64,000 nucleotides of DNA from Catajapyx aquilonaris (lineage: Eukaryota), in NCBI GenBank assembly GCA_000934665.2, contig KZ538090.1, forward strand, positions 62,001 through 126,000. Reading direction: 5' to 3'. Position 1 is the first letter of the stretch. Each line of letters starts with the position of its first letter. A program made the position numbers and the translations under genes. Below are positions 3,117 to 34,200 of this stretch, piece by piece. The notes under the pieces are model-generated. The model was not told the DNA's origin and ran no database searches. It saw only the letters and a program-made list of their open reading frames with translations.

Positions 3117-5589
3117 ATGGGCCAGAAGAAGAAAAAGGGTGAGTCCAGATGCAATTCAGAAACACCTCAGGAGTAACGAGCATGTGAGATATGTGGTCGC
3201 ATGGATGGATGTATGGTGCAATGTGGCACTTGAACTACCGTCCGGATGTTGGAGAAACAGGGCAATGATGATTGTGTTCCGACAGATACGCAGCTGAGCA
3301 AGCAGGAGCGGATGCTGCTGGTGATTACGGAGATCATTCAGGAGCTGATACGCTGCCATAAGGAGGGGAAGGATGTCAACCTGAACAGGCTCAAGTCGCA
3401 AGTGTCGTCCAAGTATGGGCTGGACTCCTCGCCCAGGCTGGTGGATATCATCGGAGCTGTGCCGCCAGACCATAAGAAGACTCTGCTGCCCAAACTTAAG
3501 GCCAAGCCCATTAGGACGGCCAGTGGGGTAAGAGTGCTGCTGGTGTTGTACGAAACATGCGTGTTGAATACAAAGGGTGGAATTTTCGTCCCACTGCTAG
3601 GTAGCCTACTGCTAACAGTACCACTGGCAACACTGGTGCAGCTAAGTTAGCAGTACCTAGCAGTGGAATGAAAATTCGACCTCAAGTCTTTATGTTGGCA
3701 AGTTATGATTTCAGCTTTGCCTTTGTACCAAAAATCGACTGAAATTGATATTCACAGTATGAGTGCCCAGGCCTAACATCCAATTTACAGTTTCAAATAT
3801 TTCACTAAAGAGAGCCAAAGATGGATTGCAGGCTTATTATAACTTGAAGTAATTCTCATAACACTGTATTTCTTCAGATAGCAGTGGTGGCAGTGATGTG
3901 CAAGCCCCACCGCTGCCCCCATATCAACATGACTGGGAACATATGTGTGTATTGCCCTGGAGGACCTGACTCTGACTTTGAGTATTCCACCCAGTCATAC
4001 ACAGGATATGAGCCCACTTCCATGAGAGCCATCAGAGCTAGATACAACCCTTATCTGCAAACGCAACACAGAGTAGAACAGGTTAGTGTTTTCGACATTT
4101 TTAAGCAAAGTCTGAAAAAGTTATAAGTGACTTACAAGACTTGTCATGTTTCACTATTTCCAGCTAAGGCAGCTTGGCCACAGTGTTGATAAGGTGGAAT
4201 TCATTGTGATGGGTGGTACATTCATGTCCCTGCCTGAAGACTACCGTGACTATTTCATCCGCAATCTCCATGATGCCCTGTCGGGACACACCAGTGCCAA
4301 TGTGGCTGAGGCTGTTCGCTACTCCGAGCACAGCCGCACAAAATGCATTGGGATTACTATTGAGACACGCCCTGACTATTGCCTAAAGCGTCATCTGTCT
4401 GACATGCTGAACTATGGCTGCACCCGCCTAGAGATTGGAGTTCAGTCTGTGTACGAGGACATTGCCAGGGACACAAATCGGGGGCATACAGTCAGGGCCA
4501 CATGTGAGAGCTTCCACCTTGCTAAGGATGCTGGGTTCAAGGTTGTGGCCCATATGATGCCTGATTTGCCGAATGTGGGTTATGAGCGGGATGTGGCCCA
4601 GTTCACAGAATTCTTTGAAAACCCCATGTTCCGTGCAGATGGCCTCAAGATATACCCCACTCTGGTCATTCGAGGGACTGGATTGTATGAGTTGTGGCAG
4701 TCAGGGAGGTACAAGTCGTATCCACCCAACATGCTAATTGATCTGATTGCAAGGGTGCTGGCATTGGTGCCCCCTTGGACTAGAGTGTACCGAGTCCAGC
4801 GAGATATTCCTATGCCACTTGTGAGCTCAGGTGTTGAGCATGGAAACCTGCGGGAGTTGGCTCTGCTCCGAATGAAGGATCTTGGACTTGATTGTCGGGA
4901 TGTTCGGACAAGGGAGGTGGGCATTCAGGAGATTCATCAGAAGGTAAGGTCAATGAAACATTTATCCTAGAACTGAGTTGTCTAGATGATCAGCCATTGA
5001 ATTCATGTCGCTGGAAGTAGTACTCCAGTGATTTTATTTTGTCACTATAAACCCCGTATTTTAAAAATATTTGGACTCAGCTAGATAATTGCAGGAAAAC
5101 GAGTGATGATGCTTATAACTGGATTGTACAGTATTTTAAGTTTTATAATATCCATGGCAGTAATTTAACATGAATTTCCACAAACAGGTTCGCCCATATG
5201 AAATTGAGCTGATACGTCGAGACTACCATGCAAATGGAGGCTGGGAGACATTCTTGTCTTATGAAGACCCTGAACAAGACATTCTGGTTGGATTGCTTCG
5301 CCTCAGGAAATGCTCTGAGGAAACTTTCCGGCCTGAGCTGAAGCCCAATGCATCTATTATTCGTGAGCTGCATGTGTATGGCAGCGTTGTGCCTGTGAGT
5401 GCAAGAGATCCAAACAAGTTCCAGCATCAGGGATTTGGGACTTTACTTATGGAGGAGGCAGAACACATTGCACGTGAAGAGCATGGATCCACTCGCATTG
5501 CAGTTATATCAGGAGTTGGGACACGTAACTATTACCGGAAGCTTGGGTATGAGTTAGTGGGTCCGTACATGGTGAAGAGCTTGGTGTAA
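3117..5589 (+). CDS. ELP3: Elongator complex protein 3 (radical SAM plus KAT domains)
   Basis: Exons 3117-3138, 3286-3527, 3878-4081, 4164-4943 and 5188-5589. Hallmark motifs: [18 protein letters not shown]...[32 protein letters not shown] and [15 protein letters not shown]. Confidence 0.98.
3574..3682. mobile_element. Small foldback MITE in ELP3 intron 2
   Basis: Inverted arms: gggtggaattttcgtcccactgctaggta...actgctaac and gttagcagtacctagcagtggaatgaaaattcgacc. Confidence 0.6.
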
Positions 5590-6363: not shown

Positions 6364-9300
6364 TCAGGTCACAATTGGTTTCCCACTGCCAAACGCGTTA
6401 AAAACCACACACCCAAACACATTCACAAGTGCCGTCATTTGGAAGACAGCAGGCCAACTCTTCGTCACCTCCATAATGTACCCTGCTATATACACCCCAA
6501 CAAAACCTGTTGGCAATAGGGAGTCATTAGGTTGCATCATGTGTTCAAATTCTCATTACCTTCTAATTACCTGGAATGGCTCCAGCAGTGTTCATGAGCC
6601 CAAAGACACTACCAGCATGTCTGGGCGCGAGATCCTGTGGATTGACCAGTATGGAGCAGTTGTGGAAGCCTGATGCAGCAAGTGCTAAAGTCATGCAAGC
6701 AAGGGCAGCGCAAAAACTCTCCACTCTCCCAATCAGGATAAGAGAGACAGCTTGAGTACCCAGGCAGAGGGTCTCCACCAGCTTGCGTGTGGCAGTGACG
6801 CTGCAGCCCCGCCTCAAGCAGAAATCAGTGAGCCACCTCCCAATGAAGACGGCAGGGATGGAGGCCACCCAGGGGATGGTGTTGAAGATCCAGCCTTTGG
6901 CCTCTGGGAAGGTTTCGTGGAAGTAGGTGGGCAGCCATGACAGGAGGATGAAGTATCCATTGTTCTGGCACACATGGCCTATGACACATGACCTACGACA
7001 ACAGAAAAGGTGTGATAATAATAACTAGTAAATTTAACTCCTTATACAGCACACTGTGTTCGTTATCAGCCTGGCTCACCAAAAGGCAGGTGTCCGGAAA
7101 TACGTTAACCAAGGAACAGCTATTCTATCCTTTATGGCTGGCCTGGTTCCACACACTAATCTTCTCCTCTGCATAGCCATGGCCCAGTAGTGCAGCAGCA
7201 ACACCCATGACATTCCAAGAAACCCTGTCAAAGAAACATACATTAACAACCAACTGAATCACTAATAATATCAATCACAACTCACCCACAGTATGAAACA
7301 CAGCAGTCCATCCATATCTGTCTAAGACATAAGAGCCCACTGATCCTGTGATAACAGTTCCTATAGCACCACCGGCAGTCACTGCACTGTAAAAGGAGGC
7401 CCTCTCCTTGGAGCCCAAGTTCTGACTAGACAAGCTGGCCATACTAGGAAAGTGGACTCCCTGGAAAGCACCTAGGAGCACTCTGGAGGCCACTATGACA
7501 TGCATAGCTACTGGAGCTGGTGAATTCAGGTGAATCACTTGGGGCATCCAGAAGGTGAGGAGGGACCACCTGGGGTTAATTTGCTTCATTAAACACATGG
7601 CAATGGAGCTGTGAATTCATTTCACAAAGGCACTAAGGCAGGGGTATTCAACTAGTTTATGACAAGGTCCAGTATTTACCTTTCCTGGGCCATTGAAGGT
7701 CCGGACCCCCCGGTAAAGGTATGGATTTTTTATTTGTATCATTTTTGAAAATAGATACATGTGCCGTAAGGGTAGAAGAGCCAATCAAGACAGGACATAT
7801 TGAGACAATTTCCCCATTACGATGTCCTGCACAGGCGCGTAAGCAGAAAAATTTCGGAGGGGGGCCATTTCATAAGCACAAGGTGAACAAACCGTAAAGG
7901 GCGGGGAGCAAGGCTCCCGCAGGCGATTTTTTTTTTTGGGGAGGGGGGGGGNNNNGGGGGGTTGAAGGTCACACGAGCTTAGGTGAAAGTGGGACTGGGA
8001 GATTTGAATGGGCGTGTATTTGATAAAATTTGTAGCACTTTTTCCAAAGAAATCATGAATTAGTAATTTATCATGCTATTTCAAACCATCCTGTATATCG
8101 TTGCGGTCTGGACAAAATTACGTCGCGGTCCGCCAGTTGAATAGCCCTGCACTAAGGCATCTGATTATTATGAATATTCATAGCTAGGAAACATGGACAG
8201 GTCTATGAGCCGATATGAGTGCATTGAATAACTATAAATCAGCTACCTTATACATTTCAAAATTTTGCTTCGTCCCAGTAAGGACTTTCAATGTATTTTT
8301 CTTTTATATAATAAAACAGAAACCAGTTCTCACTGTCAGTACATTTTTCAGGATAAGAGTGACTCCACTCTACTGTTCAGACAGATTTCACTGTATTACT
8401 GCTACTATGATCAGCTCTTGCTATGATCTACTCCTAAGCAGCCAATCAAATGTTATCTCATGGCAGAAATTTTGAAAATTCTTTACAGTTTTACATGCAA
8501 GACCTATTGTTACTCAAATACCATATCTAGTTGAATAATAATAAGCAATTGATGTTTGCTCATTTACAAGCACCATAAGTTCCCATCCAGCCACATTATT
8601 TTATCGCCTCATACGAGGACGGTTTGATAAGTTTGGTAAATCTCTGACGGATGGCGCGCAATTCAGTTGATGTCACGATTCGAATGCCGCACTCTTCAAA
8701 CCAGTTGAGGCTTGATTTCAGCAAGAACTGGCATGTTGTGCAGACGTTTTAAGAGAGCGTCACAGCAGTTGCTACAACAATGGACAAACACGAATTCCAC
8801 GCAGTGATCCAACTTTTTTTTTTGAAGAAGTGGGCGGCTGTCCAGATCAAATCCGAGTTAGATTAAGTTCACGGACACTCTGGACCATCGTTGAAGACAG
8901 TTTATTTCTGGATTAACGAATTCAAACGTGGTCGAACAAGCACTGAAGATGAAGGGTGCTCAGCCGCCCAGTTAGATCACCCCGACGGATATCGTTGAAA
9001 AAATCCATGGTATCATCATGGAAGACCGCCAAGTGACAGTGCATGAGAATGCTGACACTGTAAACATCTCAACTGAATGAGTGCACAATATTCTGCACAA
9101 TGAATTGCACATGAAAAGCTGTGTGCGCGATGGGTGCTGCGACTGTTGACAGTCGACCAAAAACACACGCCCAAGGACATTTCAAAGGAGTGTTTGGCGA
9201 TATTTAATTGCAATCCGCAGGATTTCTTGCGTCGATTCGTGACCATGGATGAACCATGGATTCTCCACTACACACCTGAGTCGAAGCAGCAGTCCAAGCA

Positions 9301-11150
9301 GTGGACAATGGCTGGTGAGAAGGCGAATATTGTTTTGTCAGCTGGAAAGGTGATGGCCACTGTCTTTTGGGATTCCCAAGGAATTGTCCTGATAGACTAC
9401 TTGGAGAAAGGAAGAACAATAACAGGAGCATATTACGCAACATTATTGGACCAGTTGAAAGAAGTGCTTACACAAAAATGCCCAAGATTGGTGCACAAAA
9501 AAGTGCTCTTCCACCAAGATAATACACCGTCCCACAAGTCGACTGTCGCAATGGCAAAATTGCACGAATTACGTTTCGAAGTGGTCCCTCATGCACCCTA
9601 TTCCCACACTTAGCCGTGAGGGACTTCTTCACGTTCCCGAACCGGAAATTTGGCTCCGTGGGAAGAAATTTTCATCAAAAGAGGACGCTGTCGCCACCGT
9701 CAACGAGTATTTTGCAGCCTTCGAGAAAAGCTACTTTTCCAATGGGATGAAAAAATTGCAAACTTGCTGGACCAAGTGTATAGCCCTCAATGGAGACTAT
9801 GTTGAGAAATAACATCGGTTTTTACCAAACTTATCAAACCACCCTCGTATGAACAAATGTAATAATTGTCAGCTGCCTCACCCCATTTTCACCCCCACCC
9901 TCCAGAAAGAGCAAGAATTTTTAAAAATGGCAGTATAGTACACATTCAAGAATATAACATTCTGACTTTCAGGGAGGAGCTGTACCTAAAGCTCACTGAA
10001 AACCAAGGTGTCCATTACGGCTACTCTGCCGTACAAAATATGCGTGCAGGTTGAACCACCAGTCTACCACCATGACACAACCCATTTATAATAATTATGT
10101 TGCTTCATCACAGGAGTACTGACCCAATGGCAGCCATCATAAGGACCCTGCCTCCTCCAATGACATCACTAAGGTAGCCGCCAACAACCTGCGTTAGTGT
10201 GTACCCCCAAAAGAAACTGGAGAGCACTGTGCCAGTCTCTGTCTTGCTCCAGCCTTCTTCTGTTGCCACAGCAGGTGCCACCAAGGGCATGGTGGTGCGT
10301 GATGAGTACAGGGCGGAGGTGCCCATCAAGAGGGTTATCATCCATGCGTGCGTTTCCCTACTGTTGAAAATACATTTATTAAATTACATTACACACTACT
10401 TACTGTATGTTTCTGTTTTTTTTTAAAATAAAATTGTAAAGCACTAAATGTGACTGTTTTCAGTACCGGTATCTCTTGAGATGCACTGCAGGACCATATG
10501 ATGGTCTTCTGTAGTTAATGTACAACCCGGTCTCTTTTCTTAGGCCTCAATTTGCTTGCAAGAATTTCCAGGAGGTATGGTACAATCTGGTACAATCTTA
10601 ACTCGACTATCCCCTGTGCCACAGCCACACAAGGCATTGATGCAACAACAGCAACATTTTTTCCATTCATTGACTGTGAGTGGAACTACTGAGGTTGTAC
10701 ACATTTGTGCAATTTTTTTCCTGTGTCCATTCCAGCATAAAACTAGCACATCCGCATAAGTTGTCTGTGACAAGTACGGCATCTACCCTTTCAATCAATG
10801 CAGGTGTGTGCAGACACGTGCACCCTCCCCTCCCAGTGGATTGCAATGATGCAACGAATAAAGTAATTCGCATTCGTGAGCAATCAGTGCTGCGCTGGCA
10901 GTTTCCTGTCCGACTGCCACGCATCAATTCGAACGGACAAGATTTCGCAAGCAATGCAAATAATCGCGTTTCTCTCCAATTATTCCACGCCTAGAAGCCA
11001 CCTCTAAAAGGGCGACGCTGTCTACCTGGACCAGACGGGATCCTGCTGCTGTGGAAGGTCTTCCTCGGGTGATGCCAGTTTGATCCTGAGGGGGAATGCT
11101 GTCACTTCCCGCTGCCCAGAATCAGACCTTTCAGATGTGGACGCCGCCAT
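6364..11150 (-). CDS. SLC17A9: Solute carrier family 17 member 9 (vesicular nucleotide transporter-like MFS protein)
   Basis: Exons 11026-11150, 10124-10357, 7286-7569, 7080-7224, 6571-6992 and 6364-6506. Motifs: GTVLSSFFWGYTLTQVVGGYLSD, RVLLGAFQGVHFPSMASL, LLSWLPTYFHETFPEAKGW and VNPQDLAPRHAGSVFGLMNTAGAIPGFVGVY. Confidence 0.92.
7639..8149. mobile_element. Non-autonomous hAT-type element in an SLC17A9 intron
   Basis: TIRs CAGGGGTATTCAACT and AGTTGAATAGCCCTG, flanked by a perfect 8-bp target-site duplication CACTAAGG (7631-7638 and 8150-8157). Confidence 0.85.
8614..9847 (+). mobile_element. Full-length but decayed mariner transposon (Himar1/irritans-like) in an SLC17A9 intron
   Basis: TIRs of about 27 bp (CGAGGACGGTTTGATAAGTTTGGTAAA and TTTACCAAACTTATCAAACCACCCTCG) with a TA duplication on both sides. 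Length is about 1.23 kb. Confidence 0.95.
8780..9812 (+). pseudogene. Mariner DD34D transposase pseudogene
   Basis: Start MDKHEFHAVIQ. Motifs WVLRLLT, VTMDEPWILHYTPESKQQSKQW, SAGKVMATVFWD, FHQDNTPSH, HAPYS and CIALNGDYVEK. In-frame stops and frameshifts are present, including one at the YSPDLAP motif. Confidence 0.93.
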
Positions 11151-11637: not shown

Positions 11638-13803
11638 ATGCAGAGTCTGAGTGCCTGGATTCTGGGCCTGGTGGGCCTCGGACTGTGCCGCTCCCAGGAG
11701 GTGGTGGACCCTTCCAAGACAGAGGTTTGGGGCCCAGGACTCACACCAGACGAGATTGTGCTACCTGCCAGATATTTTTACATTCACGCTAACACTAACA
11801 ATGGGACAAGGTAAACTTAACAGGAACTAAGCGGACCCGTTTTTTAAATTAACAGCGGGAGATGCCGAGAGATGGTTTAACGGATTGGAGCTCACTGCAT
11901 GACCTGGTTCTCATGTTTGTTTCGTCCCTGCAGGCACACGTTGTCGCCTGGCGAGGTGTTCCTGGTGACCCTGGTGGGAAGGACAACCCACGGTGACTGC
12001 CACGCTTGGATACAGGTGCTGGACAGATATGACGGCAGCTTCATAGTGAGATACAAGCTGTTTCGGACGTGTTGGGATGTGGTGATTAATGTCCAGTATG
12101 CTGGGCGACATGTGGCGATGTCGCCGTATGTTGTAAAAGGAGCTGTGTATCCAGAAGACTGCAGCTGCCCAACATCTGACTTGCAGACGTACATGCAGAA
12201 ATTGGGCTGCCGCAATTATAGCCAGATCGAGTCAGATTTGTCGCCATTTAAGAATGTGGATGTTGACAGAGTGCTTGAGGAGGCAATCGTGAGGTTCAAT
12301 CACAGTGGGACCTACTCCATCTGCAACTATGTGATTAAGTCAAACCGTGTGTACAGGAGATGCTATGGCCGATATGTAGGTTTTAGCATGTTCATGGATG
12401 CTATGTTGTTATCCCTAGTCCGGAAAACTAACTTTCCTGACACAGAATTCATAGTGAACCTTGGAGACTGGCCTTTAGCTAAAACTAACAGTAAACCTAT
12501 ACCACTGTTTTCATGGTGTGGTTCCAATGAAACACTTGACATTGTTATGCCCACCTACGACATCACTGAGGCATCCCTTGAGTGTATGGGCCGTGTCACA
12601 CTTGACATGTTGTCTGTGCAGAGCAATGGTCACAGGCTTCCATGGGAAGAGAAAAAGAAGATGGCCTTCTTTAGGGGGAGAGATTCTTGCAGGGAGAGGC
12701 TGGACCTGATTGATCTGGGGAGGGCTCACCCAGAGTTACTCAACGTGTCCATCACCAATTTCTTCTTCTTCAGGGACTTGGAGGAGGAATATGGGCCCAA
12801 ACAGAGCCCTGTATCCCTTTTTGACTTTTTTGATGTAAGTTATGTAAGCACTACCCATTAAAAGATAAGTGTCGAGAGACCCTCCAATTGGGGAATGCAG
12901 AAAATAGGACCTTAGCACTGCAGAGGTTGCAATCAAATAATACAGCTCAAGTGGAGTAAACTATTTCAGGCTGCCCAAAGCACTCCAAGCCCAAAACCAA
13001 CTGTCCCTAACAGTCCATGGTGCACATTTTATGCCCTAATGATCTTGCAAAGCAGAAAGAAACATAAATTAACTTAATATAAATTAACATGAATTTTTGT
13101 TGAAATTTTCAGCTGCATAGTTGGGTGATATCTTGCATTATTTTCTTAGGCATGTTGGAGGGCCTCTCCTTTCACTTGCAGGCTGATCACCATTCCAAAA
13201 ATGTAGTCACCTCAATTGGCATGAAAGTTAACTTGAATTTATCTTCCTCTATGTTATGGAGAACCAGTTCAAAAATAATTTCACTTTTTTGGACTCACAC
13301 TGTACCCTACCATTGCAGTACCCCTCATGATTGACTATTCAGTCCTGTCACCAATCACTTTCTTACTATTTCAGTACAAGTACCAGCTGAACATTGATGG
13401 CACAGTGGCATCATACCGCTTTCCATACCTTCTGGCTGGAAATTCTGTTGTGTTCAAGCAAGAATCTCCATACTACGAGCACTACTATTCTGAACTTGTT
13501 CCTTGGAAACATTTCATTCCTGTTCAACGTGACCTGTCAGACCTCATCCAAAAGTTACGCTGGGCCATCTCCCATGACGAAGAAGCCCGGAAGATAGGTC
13601 AGGCTGGACAAGAGTATGCCTGCAAACACCTCATGCCAGTTGACATTTTCTGCTATCATGCATCACTTATTCATCAATGGAGCCAGTTGGTGAAGAGCTC
13701 TGTTAAAGTACGTGAAGGTATGGAACATGTTACACCAAAGAAGCGAGATCCAAAGTTGGGTCCATGCATTTGTGATTCGGCCAGTAGCCATGATGAACTT
13801 TGA
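11638..13803 (+). CDS. POGLUT2: Protein O-glucosyltransferase 2/3 (KDELC1/2-like; filamin-like plus CAP10/GT90 domains)
   Basis: Exons 11638-11810, 11934-12834 and 13375-13803. Signal-peptide-like N-terminus, VWGPGL...VLPARYFYI, LDRYDGSFIVRY, EFIVNLGDWP, FFRGRDS, YKYQLNIDGTVASYRFPYLL, and a C-terminal HDEL ER-retention signal. Confidence 0.92.
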
Positions 13804-14056: not shown

Positions 14057-17000
14057 TCATTTTAGGTACCTGGAAAATGAAAATAAACATTAATTTCATT
14101 GAGCATGTGCTGATATGGTCAGAATCTATAAATCTAACATTTGTTCAGTAGTTTAAAATTAGAAACCAACTCCTAAAAATGATATCGGTACAGTACCGTA
14201 TGGGGCAGTAGGCCCAATTATTTACTTGACCATACTGGGCAGAAAGATACTGTATACTGATATGCCAATTAGAGCCTTACAACAAAGATCATTATTTTGG
14301 TTACAATAGTACAAAATTATATTTATCACTTGAAGTCATTTAAGTTACACTGACTTACTACATGTAGAGACTATTTTGTACTGTGTCTTCATTTTCCACT
14401 GTATCTAAGTAATTGTTAGTAGTCAATGATGCATAAGTTACTTTGTCTACACAGATTAGGGCCTTAAATGTGATACATACTTGGCTGCCCAGTCTGTTCT
14501 CCCATGCATCCCAGCACTGGGCCTTCCACCTACAGGTGCGACAGATGCTGCTGAATACGTATTGTATATTTTCTGGCCAACATTTGTCCCAGACAGGCCA
14601 ATGCCAGAGCCTAGTGCATGGTGCCTAGCATGATGTGAGGCTGCTGACGCATGGTGGTGGTGGTTGTACATGGCATTTTTGGTGCTCTGACCAGCCACAT
14701 ATCTCGACCTGGCCATGTAATGCTGCTTCGCCGTCACCATCCCTGAACCCTGCCTGGAGTCATAACGTGTTCCTGCCATGCTCTGCCGCCCATCTTTCTC
14801 CCCAGCTTCTGCCATACTTCCCAGGAAGTCTTCACTAGCCCTCCTCCTATTATTTTCTTGGTGATGTGACAAGAGACTACCACCGTTTTGTTGATTGCTC
14901 ATCATGCCATTGTGCTGGGCAGTGCCATGCTTCTGGGCCACCTGGAAGTAGGGATACCTGTACAGGTACCCACGTATTAGTACCATGCACATTAATATTA
15001 TGTCAATCAACCTCTGAAAAGCATCATTTTATGTTGCCAGTAAGAAAACGAGTACGGTGTGAGGATTTAAAAGTGCATCCAACCTGAGTGACTGCTGTGC
15101 ATTGGGCCTCTTGTTGGGGTTCCACCTGAGCATGTCTGTCATTATGTCGATGGCCTCCTGGCAGGCATTGGGTATGAGATGTGACAGCGGCGTTGCAGAA
15201 AACTGCGGGAACTTGAAGTTCATGGCTGCTGCCAGCTGGTACCCCTCAGACCATTCCCTCCTGTCAGGAGTCCCCAGCACTGAGCAGATCTTGAATATCT
15301 CGTCGATCTCACTGTTGCCGGGAAACAATGGCCTGAATGTGTACAGCTCTGCCATGATGCATCCCACTGCCCACATGTCAATGGGGCTGCTGTAGGTGGT
15401 TGAGTGCAGCAACACTTCTGGGGCACGGTACCACCGAGTGGATACATAGTCTGTGTAGGGTGGCCGGGACCGGATCTCTCTGGCCAGGCCAAAGTCTGCT
15501 ATCTTGACTAGCTCAGGACCCATACACAGCAAGTTCTCAGGCTTCATGTCTCGATGGAAGAAGCCATGCTTGTGCATGAAGGCCAGCCCCTGCAGGACCT
15601 GGTACATCATGTTGCGGATTATTGGTTCCGGAAACAGTTTCTCCCTGTGGGAAAGTGGTTTTATTATAAGGAGAAGTATAATGAGATCATAATTTTTAAC
15701 CTTCGCTGAATTAACTACATCATCACTTTCTGATGTATGAATTATCAAGAGCTCTTGGAATTATTCAGGAATTGTTATTGTAACTCAATTCATGTTGTAT
15801 GTCATTGCTAACAATTTGGAGAGATGTGATTTATACACAATAAGGTCCAATAACATGTCCAATTAAATATGGTAGAAATGCTTAAATTGAATGATGAGCA
15901 CTCACTGGCACTTACACACAACAAGGTGAGAGCTTACATTGGCCGCTCAAGTAGAGGCCATACAAATTGGTTTCTTGTGAGGTAGAGAAGAACCGAAGGT
16001 CAAGAACTGGTCGAATATGTTGCAATATGCATAGATGTCAACTAACTGGATGAGAACCATCAGGACGGAGCTCCCTGTTCTTTTAATTTTGCAGTACTCC
16101 ATACGTTTGATTATTAATAACCACTGTAACTTTGCTGTTACTGATGGGCTCTGGATGTCTCGTTTTTCAAAAGCACGACCCTTCAGTTTGTATTTTTAAA
16201 TATTGTGACAGGGTAACCTGCAGAGGCGGATGAGTTATTGGAAAGCCCAAGGAAAGCCTATTGCATATGGCTGTGTTTGCAAGCTCTTAAGGCTCCCGCT
16301 TATTTACCTTCCTAAAATTCACTTTTATCAATCCCAAGTGATAAAAGCCTGCTGCACATCCTTGTGTTAGATTATTATTAGAATCAAAGTAAGCAATGTA
16401 GGCCTACTGAAGAGGATCACATTATACTTGCAAAATATTTGACGTTCTCCTACTCTAATGAGATAGATAACCACTATGGCACATAGGAACAGCTGTGAAC
16501 ATTATTAATTTTTCTGCAATACTAACCCTTTCTCATACCGATCCTTCATCAGCTGGTACAGATTCTCCTTCATGTACTCGAACACAAAGTAGAGAGTGTC
16601 ATTCTCTCTGATCACTTCCTTCAACTTCACCACATTAGCATGACTCAACTTCTTCAGCGACTGAAACAAATAAGTATAGACAACATGTGCGTTTTGAAAA
16701 GGGGGTTAAGAAAAGGTTATGACCCGCCCGATGTTTATTAACCCCAATTTTTTTTTCCAGAAGAAGTCAGCCGCTCACGCAAAGACCATATACAGTATCT
16801 TGAAGGGGGGGGGGGCTTATCTGTCCCCAATTTGTGTGGGGTGCTTTGTGAGGTGACGGTGTTTCTCCAGCAATTCGGTTATGTGACAACTAGTTAACTG
16901 AGCCAATCTGATTTATTTTTATTCCTGCTACTGCATGCCCTCTTTGCCCCCCAGATAAATAATAATCGGGTATAACAACACGCAACCCCTTTCCTCCCAT

Positions 17001-20000
17001 CATTCTATATACCCCCACCTACAGCCATTCCAAGCATTGCATGCCCCAACCCTCACTAGAACACGAATAGATCAATGGTGCGTGTTTCCAGCTACCGTGC
17101 GACAGACATGGCAACCATGTACTGGTCAAACAAAATTTCCAGCGAAAGACCCATTGTTGCACATATGCCACCTTTTCCAAGGACGCGATAATACCGCCAT
17201 TACAACCTTATTCTGACCCAACCACCCCACAGCCCAAGCAGGTCATGTAGTATTCAAAGCACTGTAGATGGCCAAGTGAGATTGCATCATGCAGGAATTG
17301 ATGCCAGGTGAATATGGTACAACAAATGGATCAATTCCAACCCCCCCCCCCCCCCACCCCTGGTCGTTCCGATGTCCTTACGTAAAGGCATAATTTCGCA
17401 TGCATGTGTCGGTGGGGTAGACCGTGACCCTAATTGCCTGTCGTTGGGCTCACCGCTGGGAAGACATGCAAACTAAGGAACGGGGTATATGAAAGCGTGG
17501 TACTGTGCGCAAAATGAGGATGAATTTTTTGGCAGGATTCCTATAACACTGACCTTTACTTCCCTGAGGTTCATAGCCTCTTCCCACGAATAGTATTTCC
17601 TCTTCATCCTGCAAAGGAAATGGAAATGGAGGATTATATATGGTTGGTATTTTTGGATGGAGGTATACGCATGGTGCACTATGAAAGAATACGTAAATAC
17701 ACCTACACAGGGTGTAAAATGAAAAACGCGCAAAAACCAGTATAATATTACTGGTATTTTGCGTTTTTTAAGACACCCTACGGTGTGACAAGTAACCATA
17801 AGCTTGTAGCGGTTGAAACTTCCAAAGTAAATAAAGGTCTACTGTCGATACTAGTTTCTTTCAGTCCATTTTTTTCGCCTACGCAGCACTGGTTCTAGGA
17901 ATACTCTTAGTTGAATTCTTCATAACTCCCTATTCTTTCCTTTTCGTACTTATCAGTGGTCAAAAATACCGCGGTTGTCCGCAAGCATGCATTTAACATG
18001 TCATTACCAAATGAGTCTGAATTGTATACAATAATTCTATATGTGAAGAAAATATTGATGTACGACCCGTATAAGGCCGTAATATTACGTAAATCTGACA
18101 ACTGGGGTAATTTGTTGTCTTTGAAAGCAATGGAATTGATTACGTACTTCCCTATACTACTTCATATTGAATTTTTTCGACACGCATAGAAATACTGCAC
18201 GCATTGTGTTATCGGACTGCGCATGCAAATATTTCATTTTAAAATGCGTCAAAAAACGACTCGACTCGCAGCAAATATTCTACGCTGTGCACATGTGAAT
18301 AAGATATAAGGAACTGGAGCAAATAAACGCGTGCTTTTGTAACTGTCGATCTGATAACTCACTTGTCGCCTCATAAAATTCACCTGCTCTATACTTCGAC
18401 AAACGTACATATTTAATAATATTTGTCGCTGTATACTGGTCGTTTGGCACTTTTTGTACTGTATATCCACGTGCACTTGAGCATAGCGTGATAACAACAC
18501 ACCATGAACTATTGATAAGACCTGAAGTTCCGGACACGAGTTACGGCCTATTCTCAAATATACATTTTTTTTGTGTATTAGGTTGGGCCATACACGGCGG
18601 AAACGATTGTGAACTGTCCTTGAATCAGAATCGAAGGACCTAATTGATGACCTTCCTTCAGCACAGCAGTCAATGCGGGGAAAAATTCGGGAATTCCGAA
18701 TAATCCATAATTTGTTATCATAGCTCTCTAGAATGTGCTGCGTCGTAAACGGACTGAAAATAACGATACACAGTATACTGCACACCTGATAATTATCTGA
18801 ACGTTTGCCAGTTAATTATATCTATCCAACACTGTGAGCGAATAGACACGCATTTGACTAAATTTACCTGTAGGCGTATATACAGCAGGTTCATGCACTC
18901 CAACAGCACCAATACAAAAGCGGGCATTATACTGTAATTCAAAGTTAGTATTGAAGGTCATGGACTATAGTATACATCGATTTTTCCACCAACTAAAATC
19001 AGATTTGGCTGCACACCTGCAAACCCATACCGTGAATGTTCCAGCGGTTGAGAACCTCAGTTTCAATCAACTGTCAAAATCAAAAATAAATCCGGTTATA
19101 AATATTGCACATCCCATACAGTGCATGCAAAAATAAAGCTCAGTGAGTAGTGAAAATAGTGGATGGTGCCATTGCATTGCACGAACTATGACCAGGATGA
19201 AAAATAGTACAAACAACTTTATATGCACAGTAAGGGTGTAAGAACTTACTTCTTAATAGCCACCTTTTCACCGGTTTCAAGATTAACTCCCAGGTTGACT
19301 TCTCCGTAAGTCCCATCCCCAACTTTTCCAACGACTCTAAATCTTCTCATCTCTCTCTTTTGACAAAATCCTTCTCCGGTTGCCAGGAAAGGAGTGTTTA
19401 ACAGTACGGGTGAGGAAAGCTCACACGGTGCATCAGTGCAACACAAGTGCAGGAAGACATCGTGTAGTGACACCACGGGCTACCTGCAGAATCACAGGTT
19501 AGACATCAGTTGGGTGTGCTCATGCAAATATTCGCATTTTTTTCAGACACATAAGTTGAGCACTGTGACATGATCGATCTCAATTGCAAATTCATTGATT
19601 TAATAACAGTTGGGTGGGGTTGAAGTCACGTCTCTCAGCACACAGTTCGTTGAACCTCATATTTATTAAGGAAGCGCACATGTTAAAGCACAAGTGTGTC
19701 GCACACGCATTGTTCCTGTGTCTCCAATAGATGGTGAGATAGCCTCGCATTAAATCGTGCACGTCGTGATGCGTGACTAGCGTGGGTTGCAACTAGTCTA
19801 CACGTAAATGGATGCGTTTGCTCACGAAACCAATGCACACCTCTTTTTGCTTCACGTTTTATACTATATGTTCGTCAATATTGACTACAGGCTGCATTGA
19901 CACCCGAATATTTCCTAGCAACAATATCTCCTAATTTCAGCGCTGCCCATTATCCAACTGGACTTTGTACCCTTATATGAAAAGTATTGGGAACAGAGCT

Positions 20001-21207
20001 TTACGACAGTGTCGTGACAGCGTGAAAAATTTATTTATGTGCCAACCCCTTTGAACTTTACAGTTGTGGCTGATTGCCCTCTAATAAATCTATAAGGTGG
20101 ATTTTCTGCAATCATGTCAGTTATACTGTAATGCAACCTGAATTCAGGGCATTCGTGAAATGACAGCTGCGAATTTCCAAATGCGTTATCGAAACGTTAT
20201 CTAACCCTTGTGCCCAATAATTAATATGATTAAGCAATGCAGATGCAAATGCCAGAGTAATATTCAATAAGTTGGCGATATGTCGTAATGAACACTGATA
20301 CCACATTGAGACCAATTTAGAATCCTATACATATGTTATGACAATAATCAGATCAAATTCCCAGTACTGTACCGCAGAAATCGTTACCGAAACAGACCGA
20401 AGAAATGCGCTTGATATTCCGCTGACCTGACCTTATCTCAATTTAGGCAAAATGATCTGCACGACAGGAAATACAGCTCCAGATTCGTAGGAATACAGTT
20501 GGAATGCTGACAAGAATAGCGGTAGGCTATAACAAACAGCCAGAGTGTAACACTGGAAACGATGCAACGTACACTTGAGAGGTAAGAATGAAACCTCTGC
20601 TGAAATAAAGAGAAGAAGCAACCAGGATTGGGTGATTCGTACCATGTGACCAGCAGCCTGCAACCATATAATATAGGCCTATCTCAAAATCAGTACAATT
20701 TTGTTACCGCGATGTAACATGCTAGCTCTTTCAAATCGATGTATTACAACATGTCACAAACTTTGTTAAAATTAGAATATGGAACTTTCCCATATCGGTG
20801 CACCCACACGCTATATCATCTCTGGAAATATCAACCGTGCATCGCAGTATAGGATCCGATCCGATCAACATTTTGTCAATGAAAAATTGATAATCACATT
20901 GCATAATTTTTATTCACTTAATTATTTTAATGCTTCAAACATTTCATACGCAGGCCCGCTTCCCATTTAAATGCAAGCTTGCTCAAAAAGTGGTACCTGA
21001 TCGGATAGGATCGAACCAGCAGCCATCACTCAAGACACACACACACAAACAGAGGGTGAACCAACACTGATCGTTGCACCCAAATCACTTGGTTCCTTAC
21101 CGCTTGATGGCGACCTTTTCACCAGTGTCCACTCTCTGTCCCAGTGAAACGGATCCGTATGTCCCGTCCCCGAGGGGATTCAGCGTGACGTACCGATTCA
21201 TCTTCAT
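14057..21207 (-). CDS. MAK: MAK/ICK (CILK1, DYF-5-like) RCK-family Ser/Thr kinase
   Basis: First coding exon A 21101-21207 ([36 protein letters not shown]) or B 19250-19350. Shared exons 17554-17608, 16539-16660, 15084-15644 ([27 protein letters not shown]), 14481-14957 and 14057-14069, giving the C-terminus [10 protein letters not shown]. Confidence 0.95.
17708..17781. mobile_element. Tiny Tc1-like hairpin MITE remnant
   Basis: cagggtgt...aaaaacgcgcaaaaaccagta is mirrored by tactggtattttgcgtttttt...acaccct. Confidence 0.5.
19250..19350 (-). CDS. Alternative first coding exon B of the MAK/ICK kinase
   Basis: Encodes [33 protein letters not shown] and ends AA|GTAAGT, a phase-2 donor matching exon A. 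Confidence 0.85.
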
Positions 21208-21559: not shown

Positions 21560-21573
21560 GTTGCTATGGGGAC
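21560..21573. promoter_or_regulatory. RFX X-box upstream of MAK exon A
   Basis: GTTGCTATGGGGAC (reverse complement GTCCCCATAGCAAC), about 350 bp upstream of the ATG; fits the X-box consensus. Confidence 0.65.
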
Positions 21574-24452
21574 CGATCACAACCCAAGCCCACAACACAT
21601 GACGGACCTACACCACGCTACATACGTACCCAGCAGTATTACAACTGCTGCCCACTGCTCTGTACTGTATATAGGTGGTGCCTGGCCAATGTCAAGGCTA
21701 AGGGTACCTTTTTTAGCCGCACTTCCCACAGGACGTGGCCATTGATTAATCAATCTTTTTGGGCCATGTTACATGCAAGTCCTTCCGATGTCGTACTGCC
21801 CTAATGGATATGAGAGTTGAGGGGAAGTATGGTCGAATGGACGGGATTATATGTGGGCAATAACGCAATTAAATTGATTCCGATGACAGGAGGGCCATAT
21901 TGTATGGCAATAAACATCCAGAGCGGAAGTGTTGAATGACCCTGTCATTACTCTGCTTTTTTAAATGTCAAAGATTTATAGGGAAAGTCAAGGGGAAAGT
22001 ATAGAGGGACACTCAGCAAATTGGCAATGAGAATCTTCTTTGCATAATTATTTGCCCTCTGGGTATGGACCACAAGCTTTCATCCTGGCAGTTAGATGAC
22101 CTAAGAGCCTCTACTGTTCAACGGGAGGTGCGTAAATCAGGAGCTTCTGCCCCTGATACACGCACTTCCCGGTGAACAATTGAGCAATTAGCAATTAGGT
22201 TAGCAAACTGATCTGGATACAAGTACCTAGCATTTAGCACGAACATTGCAATTATAAATGAGCTGAAGTCCATTTTTTCTGACAAAACTGTAAATGGTGA
22301 AAATGTACTAATTAAGTCACAGTGCACATGAAAATCATGTTAATGGCAGTTGACAATATTGTTGCGTGTTTTGTTTTTAAAGAAAATTACAGGTGGGGCA
22401 GCTAACAGGAGGTGGCTTTTTACTGAAGCGAGACATTTGGATTCCGACATGCAAAATTGGGGAACGAAGAAGAATTAGGGGGACGTAATATGTCATTTGC
22501 TCCGCTCGTGATTTCGGGCCATAAATCATAATCACAAAATTATTGAATGCCTTTAACAGTTCGACATAAAGGAGGCGCGATTCTGTGTACTGCGACAGCC
22601 AACGTACGGAACATGTTAAAAGTTTAAAAGCGTCCAAGCTGTTATCCACGGGCTTATGCTATTAGGAAATATAAATCAGATGAAAATAAATTAACGTGGG
22701 GAATACCTATTATTAACTGGATATTAATATAACAGGAAAAATATTCAATATAATGTACCATGTCGTGATATAAACCCATGGCACTTGGCTACGTTCGAAA
22801 ACACCCCCAATATCAGTAAATATTTTACTAAGGCCATACACCTACGGCTTTTAAATATTTAGCTCCCCTTATCTATATAGCCTGTCACTATAGCGTCAGA
22901 GTACAGTTATCACGCTCAAACGTACACTTATGCTGCCATTGCATGGAGAGATACTAAAATGTATAGCGCCTTTTCATGCTAGATAGTTATGACTCTGGGG
23001 CTGTTTCGTTCATAAAAACCTTGCATTAGTTTTTTGCTGCACCGGTCCCCTATTTGTAAATGCACAGTAAATAATGTAATAGCGTCAGTAGAAGGTTGGA
23101 TATCTAGCTACAAAATAAGTAAGCTGCGCATGTATAAGTATAACATTCATCTTGTAATATGTGTAAAATTAATTCGATTATTTATTAACACGGGCTGCCT
23201 TGAACCCATTAGTTTGTGACTACTTCCAAGATTATTATTGGAAAATTGAATTTCTATATTATCATATTAGAGTGTGCTTTATCCTATGCCAGATTAGAAA
23301 GTAGCATAATACCACTCGGTGTAAGAGCGCCTTACACTGGCCTTGAACACTCGATTTCGACCGTGCAGCCAGTGGTGTACTTGTGTAACACCAGAGTTTA
23401 CTACACTGTAATAAATGAATGGATCGAGTTTACCTAAACCACTCCCTCAGCTCCCCCTGCACGGAATATTCAAATTCAGTGCTTACACTGGCGATACACC
23501 AACGTTACACCGGATCATATACACATAGACTGATTGGGTTCCCATGAATTCAGGCAGGACCATGTGCTAATTGGTTTTTGCTATTAAAAATGCTCATCCC
23601 CCAGCTGTTTATGTATGTCTTCCCGGTTACGGTATAACTACAAAAGCATAAAATATTTTCTCTGTACTTTAGCCACTTTCTACAACCTTATGAACAGGAA
23701 CTAGCGAAGAATTTATTTTTCCTGAAGACTTCAGATGTCAAGATATGTCCACCTAGCCGATTCAGCCAGTACAGCACGCTCACAGGTCATTGCAACATTT
23801 CCCCCAGCCCTCTCCCACCTCCCCCACTCCTCCAATTAAAACCTTCAGTAAGTCCCTCTCATTTATAATGGAGAGATTGATATTTCCCGCCCGTATCGAA
23901 GTGTGCCATCAGGACACAGGTGCTGCCACCTGCCTGCCTGCCACTTCGTCAATCTGAAACTCATTGGCGCACTTCAGATTTGACTTCTGCCACTTGAAGT
24001 GAGCCCGCCAGCCCACGACTGGTCCTGATAGGCTGAAAGTCCTACGTACAGGTGCCAAATATGATGTGCCTTTTCAAACAATTCAGAAAAACGATACTGG
24101 TAGTGAGACGATGGAATGGTCGTTCATGCCGTCCGCTTTTGGCAAAGTCAAATTATTGCGACTTGGACTTCTTGGAACTGCTTCTGGGACTTGAAGGGTC
24201 TGGAAGGGCAGTTGGGTAGAGCCTGCAGGGAAGAGGAACATGCAGGCAAAATGTGCCAGACAATTACAAATGCTTTGGGTACGTTAGGTAGTAATGCAGC
24301 TATTTACACCGTAAGGCGTATGACTAATTTTTCCTGCCATTTCCAGTATCTATAAATGCTTTCCTTTCAATTTACAGACCTGCGTGTAGTACAGTCAAGT
24401 CTGTTGCTGGTCAGGAGAGTGCAACCTTAATGGAAGACACTATACATGGAAC

Positions 24453-26719
24453 ATGCTGCGTTCACTTTGCACTGGTACAATTTTGCGGTGCCTGACAAGG
24501 AATGCCGGTTCCGCACTCGTCCAGGCTGCAAAGTGCTCCACATATGACGTGACCCAGACTACCATATTGGTCCAAGAGGGCCTTGAAATACAGGAGGTGC
24601 CAGCTGCTGTTCTGAAAACCTCTCCACCGTCACTGCTCCTTTGTTCCAAGGATGGTGGCATCAATGGGATCCAGGACAGTGGAGGGCATGAACGCTGGAA
24701 GAAGCCTGAAAAGTTTAGGTCCATGTCCCAGGATGAACTGGAAGAGATGTGTGGTGGATTCAAACGATGCCACCAACCTAGAGATGTTTTCTTGCTGTTA
24801 GAAACTATGCCTGAGGAGGAGGTGGCACCACCAGTTGCTCTCCAAGCCTTAGCCAAATTGGTCGAGCTTGAGAACAACAAGCATTTTCGTAACTTACCCC
24901 GGCTGCACAATCCAAATGAGCACCTATTGGATGGCGAAATAAAGCCTGAAGGTGGATTTACAAGAGCAGCAATAGTCAAACAGCTTGTGGACATTATATG
25001 TTGTTCTGATGAACCCAGTGTTCTCATAAACACTCTCAAATGCATCTCTAAGGATGTCAGTTTGGAAGCATCACATCAACACAGAATATGTGACACCTTA
25101 CTTGTCCAGGTCAGTCAAGAGAAGCTGAGTCTGATGGAAATATGTGAGCTGGTTCGCCTGTTCTCTGGGCTTGAATTCCTGGGTACAGCGCAAGCTGATA
25201 AGTTGTGGGTTGGACTTGTTGACCGCCAATCAGATATTGTGTCGTCAAATTTGGCGTCAGTTGCTGAGACACTCCCTCATTTGGGGCAGTCTCAACAGCT
25301 TGTCTATTCTGTGGTTGAAAAAGCTGCAATGCAACTTTGGTGGCAAATGGAACCCGCACAGATGACGACATTGGCAACATCAGTGTGCCAATCTGGGTGT
25401 GCCACACTCCGACTGCTGTCTTCAATTGCACGTTGGCTCAGTGTCAACATACATCTGACAGGAGAACCTGAATTGCTGACAATAATAATCAGTCTGCACA
25501 TGTCAGGTTATTCAGACCACAACACTGAACACGCACTTGAACGGTATATGCGTGCCAGGGCCAACCTCATAAAGGACCCAGCACTGGTTGCTGCAGTGGC
25601 GAGCTATTGCCAACGGTTTAACATGCGTAATTCCACAATATTGGAGTCAATTGGCTCCTTCTTTATCAGCAATGCCAAACAGTGCAGTGCTGCGCACATT
25701 CACTCCATTGTGACTGCATTAGCGCACCTGGACTTTCACCCACTTGATGGGATATGCTTCTGGAAGACACTGGAGGAGGAGCTAGAGGAAAGGTTTGTCC
25801 AGTTCCAGCCTGGTGCTGCCGTGGACACCCTTCTTGGATGTGTGTTGCTGAGGAGGTATCCCATCAACCAGATGAGGAAAGTGATGAATCCGTTCTTCCT
25901 GGACCGCCTGCACCAGACCCGTGACTCATTGCAACTTGCCAGAGACAGGCTCAGGCTCAAGTTGTTGGACACGGCCATGGCCATCGAGTGCCCACACTAC
26001 TTTGGACCAATATTGCCACAGGTATCCTTCCATTGATTTTCAATGTGTCAAAGCACTGTTATATCAGTAGGTTCCTTCTACTTGTACAAAGGGATAGATT
26101 TGAAGCTGATTGTGTGACTGATTGTAAATCCGTGTGTAATCTTATGTGAATAACATGGATCAGCAATTTATGCGGTCAAGACAGCCCAGGAAACACACAA
26201 ACACACATATTGTGGCTGCACCATGGCTTTCTCTTTTTTAAAACTTATTTATGAACTTTTCTTTAGGAAACGCAGGCAAAATCCCTGTGGCAAGATGGGC
26301 GTGTACTCCGCTGTGTGAACATCGTGCGAGACCCTCTGTGTGAAATACTGGGTGGACCAGAGCGCTTCAGCACCCGTGCCCTTCTGGCCCACCTACCACT
26401 GGCAGAGACTTATGTTGTGGACATCTTGATTTATCCGTCAGGAGTTACCATCACATCCCTCACAGGCAGACCTGGTTTAGGTCTGAAGAATTCAGGCATG
26501 GTGGCTGTCCTGATCCATGTCCCAGAACACTTCTGTTCAGATGGGCGTACTCTAGTTGGGATGCAGCTTCTGAGGCACAGACATTTGAAGCTAATGGGGT
26601 TCAAAGTCATCACTCTCAGGATGGAAGACCTTACACACCTCAAGGTGCATCCCAGCAGACTTAGTGATCACCTTAGAACTGCTCTTAGTGAAGTGCTTTC
26701 TCTAGAGGGCATTAGCTAA
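24453..26719 (+). CDS. FAST kinase domain-containing mitochondrial RNA-binding protein (FASTKD family, C-terminal RAP domain)
   Basis: Exons 24453-26021 and 26267-26719. Arg-rich N-terminus resembling a mitochondrial presequence, a helical body, YPINQMRKVMNPFFL...LKLLDTAMAIEC, and RAP-like VAVLIHVPEHFCSDG...LRHRHLKLMGFKVI. The paralog could not be resolved. Confidence 0.82.
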
Positions 26720-31248: not shown

Positions 31249-34200
31249 TCAGCTGTCTCCACCTGCTCCCATCATTGGCACGATCCCATTGACGCTAGTT
31301 GTTGCCTGGCAGTAGAACTCAGCCCACACTGGGCAGTGTGAACTGACACTGCCCCCAAGGGTCCACCCATTTGGTATGGCCAAGTGGGACAGACCTTGCC
31401 TGACCAACCCTGAGTGCCCAGTGTAAAGAGGGATGGCTGATGGCGACAGCCCAATGTTCTGCTGGCTAATCTCTGAAGGGTTGTCAGTATTTTCCATCAC
31501 AGAGGTGCTCGATCCTCCAGAAACCACAGTTTGGAAGCCCATTGCTGACATCTGACCAATAATACCTGTGGTTGGAAATAATATTGGTGACTGGCTTAAA
31601 CTCAACAGTTTCACGTTTAACTGGGAGAGAAGTGAATGCATATTACTCCTGCATTGATGCTACAGGTACAATTCACTCTCTCAGTTTAAATGTGTAGTGA
31701 ATATCTAAAACAGCAGATCCAAAAGCATATCACCGATATCTGAACTTACCATTGCTGTCAGGGTTGCAAACGGCAATGGGAAAGCTTCCTGCTATTGCTA
31801 GGCTAGTCTTGCCTGGCCCCTGAAGTGACTGTAAGGCAGCTTGTAAGCTCTTGGCATTCAGGCTTGGTCCATTGGATTGCTGCCTCCTCAGATTGATATT
31901 TAAGAGAGTGAGGGTCACATCCATCACCTAATCAAAATACGCAGAACAACACCATTTCATTGTATAATTAACATGACTTTCCTAATAAATCATTAGTGAT
32001 TTAAAATGTTATGAACTGATTAAAACCTTGAAAGTGGTGACAAAGGCTTCGCACTGTTCCTCTGCAGTCTCTTGATTGTTGTTGTTGTTGTTGCCTGGAA
32101 AGCCTACAGCCTCTGCAGTTAAGCTCAAAGGATAGCTTGAGTCATAAATGACCCCGAGCTTTGCACATGGTGATGAGAAGGCATATTTCCAGTCTCCTCG
32201 GGGACCGTCCCATTTTTTTGTTTGGTGCAGAGTGGGCTGGTTCAATTCATCACAGATCTGGTAACATGCGGCTCTTTAGAGTTCAATTCTTTACAACAGA
32301 GCTTGTACATTAACTTGACTTGATTAATGAAACTAAAACGAGACTGCAGCAGTAGATAATAACCATACGGTAAGTACCTTTTTCAGTACAGCTTCATTGC
32401 AGACTTCTTGAAGCGCAATAAGAGAGAATCTGAAAGGTATGTCAATCATTTCAAGGACAACTATACAATAGTGATACACATCAGAAAGTGACAGCCACAT
32501 ATCCAAAATCCCAAATTTCCACATGTTACAAACTACTTCCAGTAGTGGCATTAATTAATTGATAACTCACAAAATCATCGGTAAAAGACCAAAGGCAGAA
32601 AAAACATTCCTACATCAACCTGGTTTTTTGAATGTAAATGAAAGGCGCACAGAGCAGACACATAACTACATTTTTAAATACACAAAATGCAATAATTCCA
32701 TTATAAATGACGGCTTGATTTCAAGAATTCATGCCAAATGCGATGCAAAATGTAAACACTTGCGGGAAATACTTTCTGCCTTGGCACAGATGAAGGTCAT
32801 CCAAGTGGATGCCTATGACATAACTTCACAAGAAACATGCAGCATGCAATGTTTTGCAATTTCCTCCATTCAGTAGTGATTTGCAGTTGCACAGGAATTG
32901 CATTTTAAGTAATTCCCCCAGTTAAACATGTGCACATAAAGCTTTTCCAATGCAAACCACATAATAGTGCCTATTTACAGTTTTGCATTGCAGTGTATTT
33001 AGGAGAAAATGGAAGTGTTCCAAGAAAACCCCATGCACAGGCACAGATATATTCTCAGACTCTGCGCATTCTTTCTCCCAAACAGCACCAAACGCTCTGA
33101 TTGTTACGCTTTGCTGAACAACTTCAGGCAAACATTTCTTACCCATTTTCCATTACAGTCCTACAGATGACTTCCATCACCCCAGGATTGGCGGCTTTTT
33201 CTTCGCCCATTCCCCCAAGATTCCAGGTAGCCACCCGAAATGCCTTCCTGTTATCCCTTACATTCCGGAACGCTCTCGTTGTGATTGGGCGTCTTGACCT
33301 TACCGAAAGCAGTTCAAACACATCTTCAAAGCAGGTATCATCTGTCCCAGTCAATGCAGTGCCACCATCCAAACTGTCTCCCACTCCAGTATTAACAGGT
33401 GCAGATGATGATCGTCTGTGCCCCAGGTGTCTCTTTGCATGATTGGCCACCCCATTGCAGACAACTGCATCTTCCAGCAGAAAGCAACTACGAATGGCTC
33501 CTAATTTTCGGTAGTTAAGTCCCCTGACCCGGAGCAGATCATTAATATTGCGAAAAAGCCCCTTCCTGTCCCTGTATTCCACTATACTGGCAGCAAGTTC
33601 CTGGTTGACTCCATGTATGGCCATCAAGTCAAACACAGTTGCCTTGTTTACGTTCACTAAGCGCACTGATGGTGATCCCCGAACACTGCCTCCCCGGCAA
33701 TTGGAGTCACTGCTTGGAACACTTGTGCTGTCCACAGAATGGCTCAGGGATGAAGTACGGCTGTCAAAAATATTTTACTGCTCTTTAATGTGGTGTAACT
33801 AAAGAGGAATTTCAGTCACAAACACAAGTTAAATTTTTAAAACAGTGAACATTATGCATTATTCAAGCAAGTCCAGTATTTTGTTCAAAACCAAAAATAA
33901 AAACATAAAAAATGTCATAATTCAAAGTTTAGGCTGACAACATGTGATATCAATGGTGTGGTCTGTGAATCAATAAGAAGCCCCTCAAGGGGCATACAAC
34001 ATTCCTGAATCATAGAAGGAGTCTATTAATTCTCGTGTGATGGAGGATTTCTGTAGGTATCAAAATATATGCAACAGGCAAGGGAACTGCGAGATGGTGG
34101 GGCGTGGAGAACCTTACCAGTGACATCACACATGGAAAGCTGAATTGCAGTTGCTATGGCAACCTTGAGTGGAAAAAGTTACTTCAGTAAAATAATGCTG

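Follow-up and report, generated by a model that had tools for sequence, protein, structure and literature searches.

A duplicated first coding exon that probably gives a MAK/ICK/DYF-5-type kinase of Catajapyx aquilonaris two alternative N-termini

We analyzed 64,000 nucleotides (nt) of the genome of Catajapyx aquilonaris (assembly GCA_000934665.2, contig KZ538090.1, positions 62,001 to 126,000 of the forward strand; this whole stretch is called the window below), whose minus strand carries a protein kinase gene with two homologous versions of its first coding exon, here called A and B (Table 1). The gene can probably make two versions of the enzyme, differing around the ATP pocket. The explanation that we favor, and to which we give a somewhat better than even chance, is that the first coding exon was duplicated in tandem long ago, that both copies have been kept coding, and that B is used instead of A, so that two kinases are produced.

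To locate the exons, the sequences of five orthologs were compared with the whole window by tblastn; the hits were inspected for two of them, and so were the junctions. Every junction is in frame, and the predicted product has 448 amino acids with exon A and 446 with exon B. The peptide of exon 2, the first exon common to both forms, matches the orthologs at 18 of 19 residues, and its acceptor consists of a strong pyrimidine tract followed by AG immediately before position 17608. Exon 4 scores 162.4 bits against Pfam Pkinase and includes a TDY activation-loop motif, which is typical of the RCK (MAK/ICK/DYF-5) family. The best 120 database relatives found with this C-lobe exon (mostly insects, plus one isopod) match it at 82-88 % identity, and none exceeds 88 %; those that carry names are mostly called MAK, ICK or dyf-5, and some are listed as 'hypothetical' or under other names. 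The N-terminus encoded by exon A is 92 % identical to that of a termite ortholog. Judged by these matches, the gene is a MAK/ICK(CILK1)/DYF-5-type RCK protein kinase gene, an ortholog of that family, and exon 5 would be its last exon. As a separate observation, the reading frame of exon 3 stays open beyond its donor (16505-16540, minus strand), and one relative (P0114) reads LMKERYDHGDKLFPEQM at the same point; in some species the exon may have a second donor there, or a variant with a small insertion.

Table 1. Exons and signals of the kinase gene, numbered by position in the window
Feature	Position	Strand	Remarks
X-box-like palindromic motif GTTGCTATGGGGAC	21560-21573		353-366 nt upstream of the first ATG of exon A
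Exon A, canonical first coding exon (MKMNRY...VAIK + 2 bases of the next codon)	21207-21101	-	donor GTAAGG 21100-21095
Exon B leader with possible acceptor (ctaac...ttctgcag)	19351-19485	-	AG at 19485-19484
TAG closing the frame from exon A	19482-19480	-	in exon B leader
Two out-of-frame upstream ATGs in exon B leader	19460 and 19433	-	sequence reading
Exon B, diverged duplicate of the first coding exon (...VAIK + 2 bases, own ATG)	19350-19250	-	donor GTAAGT 19249-19244
Exon 2, common to A and B	17608-17554	-	acceptor tttcctttgcag; first base completes the R/K codon
Exon 3, codon split	16660-16539	-	ortholog tblastn and junctions
Exon 4, kinase C-lobe with TDY activation-loop motif	15644-15084	-	ortholog tblastn, junctions, Pfam
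Exon 5, C-terminal tail to TAA stop	14957-14456	-	ortholog tblastn and junctions

Reading and translating the minus strand confirmed what an earlier, sequence-only reading of this DNA had described, namely two separate ATG-initiated exons for the kinase N-lobe. Each of them encodes both the glycine loop and the lysine of the VAIK motif, and their alignment reproduced the reported identity of 19 in 33 residues. The peptide given for A in that reading begins at the second ATG (21201), and the coordinates quoted with it include two extra residues (MK). Counted from the aligned ATGs of MNRY and MRRF, both exons are 101 nt long; they have the same orientation and the same donor phase, and lie 1.75 kb apart. 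A and B are thus neighboring homologous exons that agree in strand, length and phase, the arrangement by which tandem alternative exons are recognized. Both end, as had been stated, in a phase-2 GTAAG donor (...AAGCG/GTAAGG for A and ...AAGAA/GTAAGT for B) that joins exon 2 in frame, and the codon completed at this junction encodes R after A and K after B. When A is joined instead to the possible acceptor upstream of B, the resulting CG+G codon is followed directly by TAG, so that the immediate stop claimed for this product is indeed present. The arrangement supports the view that A and B make coding sense only as alternatives. The earlier reading had also remarked that exon A is missing from the list of open reading frames (ORFs) supplied with the sequence; the ORF that starts at A's ATG has only 36 codons, and a length cut-off would explain the omission.

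The first coding exon is the only exon of the kinase gene found to be duplicated when orthologs were compared with the window by tblastn, and this comparison revealed no kinase piece besides B, whether in intron 1 or in the rest of the window. With the termite ortholog as query, B was found at E = 7e-7 in a search of the whole window. Pfam Pkinase also recognizes B on its own, with a score of 21.0 bits (profile positions 2-30) that is slightly above the 18.6 bits of A (profile positions 1-30). Because of these two matches, we conclude that the likeness of B to A is not due to chance.

To establish which copy is canonical, we used the best 120 relatives of the C-lobe exon as an ortholog set; four of these lack the N-terminus, leaving 116 N-termini. 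All 116 are of the A type, sharing 26-30 of 33 residues with A and 18-20 of 33 with B. A is therefore, by this comparison, the canonical, ancestral exon and B the diverged copy. The two differ at 43 of 99 nucleotides, with 11, 10 and 22 differences (of 33 each) at codon positions 1, 2 and 3, and the proportions of synonymous and non-synonymous differences are 0.69 (near saturation) and 0.35, respectively. Outside the exon the copies cannot be aligned: the sole high-scoring segment pair between them covers 76 nt at 70 % identity and lies inside the exon. The near-saturated synonymous sites and the unalignable flanks indicate that the duplication is old, which bears out the age proposed for it from the sequence.

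Purifying selection on B as a kinase N-lobe exon had likewise been proposed, and its signature was found in drift simulations, in the distribution of changed positions and in the Pfam match. In the GDGTYG and TGEKVAIK blocks, the two exons show six synonymous differences and no non-synonymous ones. For the simulations, exon A was mutated at random, 5000 times, until it carried the observed 21 changes at codon positions 1 and 2. The ATG was kept and no stop codon arose in 11 % of these runs, and the six kinase invariants that we tracked (three G-loop glycines, V18, A31 and K33), all of which are kept in B, survived together in 0.66 %. Scored against a first profile, built from 56 metagenome peptides, B reached 57.8 bits, and the simulated maximum was 30.2. 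This profile is biased towards B, because its peptides had been chosen by likeness to B, and the test was therefore repeated with a B-independent profile made from 15 distinct ortholog N-termini that were retrieved via the C-lobe. Against this second profile B scored 43.2 bits, the simulated exons had a mean of 13.1 and a maximum of 39.5, and none of the 5000 reached B.

The 14 residues that differ between A and B occupy positions 2, 4-10, 17, 19 and 22-25, which are variable in the family; when the changed positions were permuted, this placement gave p = 4.4e-4 when the entropies were independent of B and p = 1e-5 when they came from the 56 metagenome peptides. B shows no disabling change: its ATG, 33 open codons, phase and GTAAGT donor are all intact. 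Taken together, the simulations, the changed positions, the Pfam match and the intact ATG, frame, phase and donor make it very unlikely that B is a long-dead duplicate; B carries the selection signature of an exon kept for the kinase N-lobe. Both copies appear intact and under purifying selection, as judged by evidence that is indirect and comes from a single pair of copies in one species.

These observations suggest how the gene could work. After the ancient tandem duplication of the first coding exon, with both copies retained as coding, transcripts containing exon A would most likely begin at an upstream ciliary promoter of the RFX/X-box type. Exon B is situated in intron 1; it has an ATG of its own and an excellent donor that agrees in phase with that of A. 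It would replace A, and could be reached either from an internal start site near its ATG or from an upstream non-coding leader exon spliced to the acceptor at 19483. Each exon would then be spliced to exon 2, and the two kinases would be identical except at 14 of 33 residues. The affected elements, which are strands beta-1 and beta-2, the beta-2/beta-3 turn and the residue that follows the glycine loop, form the roof and the outer face of the ATP pocket. The expression of B, the mutual exclusivity of the two exons, the promoter arrangement and any functional difference between the products are inferred.

The signals around the two exons fit this scheme in part. GTTGCTATGGGGAC is the only X-box-like match between positions 10147 and 34149, and it is a candidate for the RFX site of the promoter of A; as about nine chance matches are expected in the whole window, it is no more than suggestive. 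The dyf-5 gene of C. elegans depends on a functional X-box at -285 (PMC3245922). Inverted repeats were sought in the introns as possible docking and selector sites for a mutually exclusive choice of exons, and none of the nine short pairs found there was convincingly placed. The acceptor of the B leader is only moderate by a crude count of pyrimidines. Two further observations concern motifs in the same region and beyond. An octamer-like motif (ATGCAAAT/ATGCAAAA core) occurs three times in intron 1 (18216-18232, 19118-19134 and 19515-19531), and one of the copies precedes the possible acceptor of B by about 30 nt. An X-box-like, near-perfect palindrome, GTTGCTATGGCAAC, with one mismatch to the consensus, lies at 34150-34163. 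On either side of it are ORF pieces of a minus-strand gene (31249-34829) that has helix-hairpin-helix-like repeats; the palindrome may be the RFX site of a neighboring ciliary gene, or a chance match.

The best-surviving alternative, which we nevertheless regard as unlikely, is that B is a relic: a dead or dying duplicate in intron 1 that was functional for long, or has been conserved by chance, and is now unspliced. It gains from three of the observations that weigh against two retained coding exons: the missing X-box-like motif, the change of a tyrosine and the absence of B-type sequence elsewhere. The motif search found no X-box-like sequence between A and B, and hence nothing promoter-like of this kind upstream of B, and a leader beginning at 19483 would place two upstream ATGs ahead of the ATG of B. 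Position 4 of B is F, and Y stands there in 56 of 56 family peptides; the substitution is conservative, but it alters an otherwise invariant tyrosine. The contrast between codon positions, taken alone, rejects a B that has been neutral since the duplication only marginally (about 0.04, a rough binomial estimate reached by inference), because the synonymous drift of A itself adds to the divergence at third positions. The distribution of B is a further difficulty. If the duplication is as old as its synonymous saturation suggests, B should occur in other lineages, and B-type sequence was seen neither in any annotated ortholog (0 of the 116 N-termini from the best 120 C-lobe relatives) nor in the other libraries searched, which covered no close relative.

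A HMMER pass with B over 1.84 billion representative proteins returned 21 proteins at E ≤ 0.001. Among the 20 that were inspected (P0126, of 2027 amino acids, was left out), none is an ortholog of B, and none comes closer to B than an A-type exon does. Nine of the 20 belong to an unrelated type of kinase (RFDIIKKLGQGTYGKV...). P0125, together with nine short fragments (eight single-exon ORF fragments, and P0137, which runs past the exon boundary), is 57-64 % identical to B, about the level of A-type exons. P0132 and P0127-P0130 had looked B-like; by residue count, P0132 is closer to A (24/34) than to B (21/34). A metagenome scan gave 594 pattern matches, of which 395 were confirmed and 80 loci kept; none of these 80 exceeds 61 % identity to B across the whole exon, and none contains a second MAK-type copy. 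Four of the loci show an extra weak match to other kinase-like or stop-containing sequence, and in an arthropod-like locus (L031) the 5.5 kb downstream of the A-type exon are without a second copy. Word-index searches of proteins with B extended to 42 amino acids returned one non-scoring candidate in the 'longer' search and, in the 'near' search, none that shared three words; these blanks carry little weight, because A-type proteins sharing six words with B were not returned either. A side observation from this work is P0124 (a eukprot gene model of 304 amino acids), a kinase from an unrelated eukaryote in which three glycine-loop-to-VAIK-type segments (VGHGTYGHVYLGH..TG.KCAIK) stand in tandem, and which looks like another case of chained, tandemly duplicated N-lobe exons.

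Against a relic stand the absence of any disabling change, the family-profile score that no neutral simulation reached, and the confinement of the changes to variable positions. B is not what one would expect of an exon that has been dead for long and whose third positions are saturated; only very recent silencing would fit, and that is an extra assumption. We prefer two coding exons, both retained and used in place of one another.

A different role for B, improbable as its main one, is that of a 'poison' exon: splicing of A to the acceptor at 19483 would bring in the TAG and send the transcript to nonsense-mediated decay, thereby tuning the level of the kinase. The elements for this are in place: a ttctgcag acceptor with a branch-like CTAAC site precedes the ATG of B by 133 nt, a TAG stands in frame directly after A, and B ends in a strong donor. 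Splicing coupled to nonsense-mediated decay is a topic of the published literature. However, a poison exon needs neither an ATG nor an open, kinase-like frame, nor conservation of amino acids with synonymous turnover, and the acceptor in question is of moderate strength by pyrimidine count. Such a role would also be compatible with coding use of B and could be an additional function. Less probable still is a recent insertion, by which B would be a fragment derived from a diverged paralog elsewhere in the genome and its selection signature would record the history of that paralog. This would explain why B looks intact without being used in place, but a random insertion would be very improbable, we infer, to arrive in the homologous intron, in sense orientation and with the donor phase of A, and no transposon-like repeat flanks B.

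One sequence from the protein search bears on the duplication itself. An unnamed protein of the ostracod Darwinula stevensoni (CAG0889880.1, our P0125; an automatic model) has an A-type copy of the exon, then a diverged copy in frame, and then MKRKYYSW. Over 31 residues, the second copy shares 22 with the first copy of the same protein, 21 with A and 18 with B, and its changes fall in the same segments as those of B (positions 5-8, 17 and 21-24). The Darwinula protein thus resembles the Catajapyx gene in being an ortholog in which a diverged version of the exon comes after an A-type one; it differs in that the second copy has no ATG in the model and is closer to A types (21-22/31) than to B (18/31). 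An independent duplication in Darwinula is at least as likely as a common origin with B, and the chaining of both copies in one protein is probably an artefact of the gene predictor. Were the model taken at face value, A and B might both be included in one mRNA, doubling the beta-1 to beta-3 segment, and A could be spliced in frame to B at an AG at 19356-19355; we regard this as the least credible reading of all, given that this AG lacks a pyrimidine tract, that the kinase fold, by established knowledge, has no place for a doubled glycine loop, that B retains its own ATG and that the Darwinula model is an automatic prediction possibly chained by mistake.

With B taken as an alternative to A, the gene can be set beside known systems. 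Tandem-duplicated homologous exons of which one or the other is used form a known class, rare and usually functional. In MAPK8 and MAPK14 the alternative exons are internal and lie in the C-lobe or substrate-docking region, not at the glycine loop, and the alternative splicing of mammalian MAK affects the C-terminal part. A close parallel is FYN, whose exons 7A and 7B (FynB/FynT) are tandem homologous exons over the ATP site of the kinase (PMC9741552). The likeness lies in alternative homologous exons that cover a kinase ATP site. The FYN exons, however, are internal cassette exons of a tyrosine kinase, with isoforms demonstrated by experiment, whereas A and B are first coding exons with their own ATGs, and belong to a serine-threonine kinase of the CMGC/RCK group in which the use of B is a prediction. 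MAPK8 (JNK1) and MAPK14 (p38 alpha) are named among human substitutions derived from tandem exon duplication in PMC8373072, and share with the present case that they are CMGC-group kinases with homologous alternative exons within the kinase domain. Within the MAK/ICK(CILK1)/DYF-5/LF4 family, the Catajapyx gene has the expected C-lobe (82-88 % identity to orthologs), the TDY loop and an X-box-like motif upstream of A that resembles the one at -285 reported for dyf-5; it differs in its B-type N-terminus, found in none of the 116 orthologs. Searches of the open-access literature turned up no report of such an exon pair in MAK/ICK/DYF-5. The earlier suggestion that the arrangement may be new for MAK/CILK1/DYF-5 needs softening, given the two tandem copies in the Darwinula model and the FYN precedent for alternative exons at an ATP site.

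The surroundings of the gene were also recorded. On the plus strand the window contains an ELP3 gene (Pfam ELP3_N and Radical_SAM; 3234-5589), a GT90 glycosyltransferase with a filamin repeat (POGLUT/KDELC-like; 11881-13803) and a FAST_1-domain (FAST-kinase-domain) gene that is transcribed divergently from the kinase gene (24390-26036). On the minus strand lies a maestro-like HEAT-repeat exon (1444-2010). A remnant of a mariner/Tc1-type transposase (Pfam Transposase_1, 74.8 bits; 9104-9613, plus strand) sits within a minus-strand MFS transporter, flanked by its exon-like pieces at 6364-7616 and 10108-10383. A short run of N at about 7900-7960, within a low-complexity stretch, marks an assembly gap, seen as XX in several reading frames.

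MAK/ICK/DYF-5 kinases set the length of cilia and the turnaround of intraflagellar transport. A broader possibility, which we offer tentatively and think doubtful, is that duplication of the exon for the roof of the ATP pocket has happened repeatedly among the RCK ciliary kinases of arthropods, here and in Darwinula. One gene would then yield two enzymes that differ around the glycine loop and are under separate transcriptional control, one ciliary and driven by RFX, the other serving a different cell type (for example the germ line). Exon duplication would in this way parallel the whole-gene duplication that gave vertebrates MAK and ICK(CILK1). For annotation, the lesson is that gene predictors may miss an exon such as B or chain both copies together, as appears to have happened in Darwinula and in P0124. 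If the proposed use of A and B is correct, it would add a serine-threonine kinase to the short list, represented by FYN, of kinases with alternative homologous exons at the ATP site. Two forms of one kinase that differ only around the ATP pocket would then offer a naturally occurring test of how this surface influences activity, regulation or the binding of partners.

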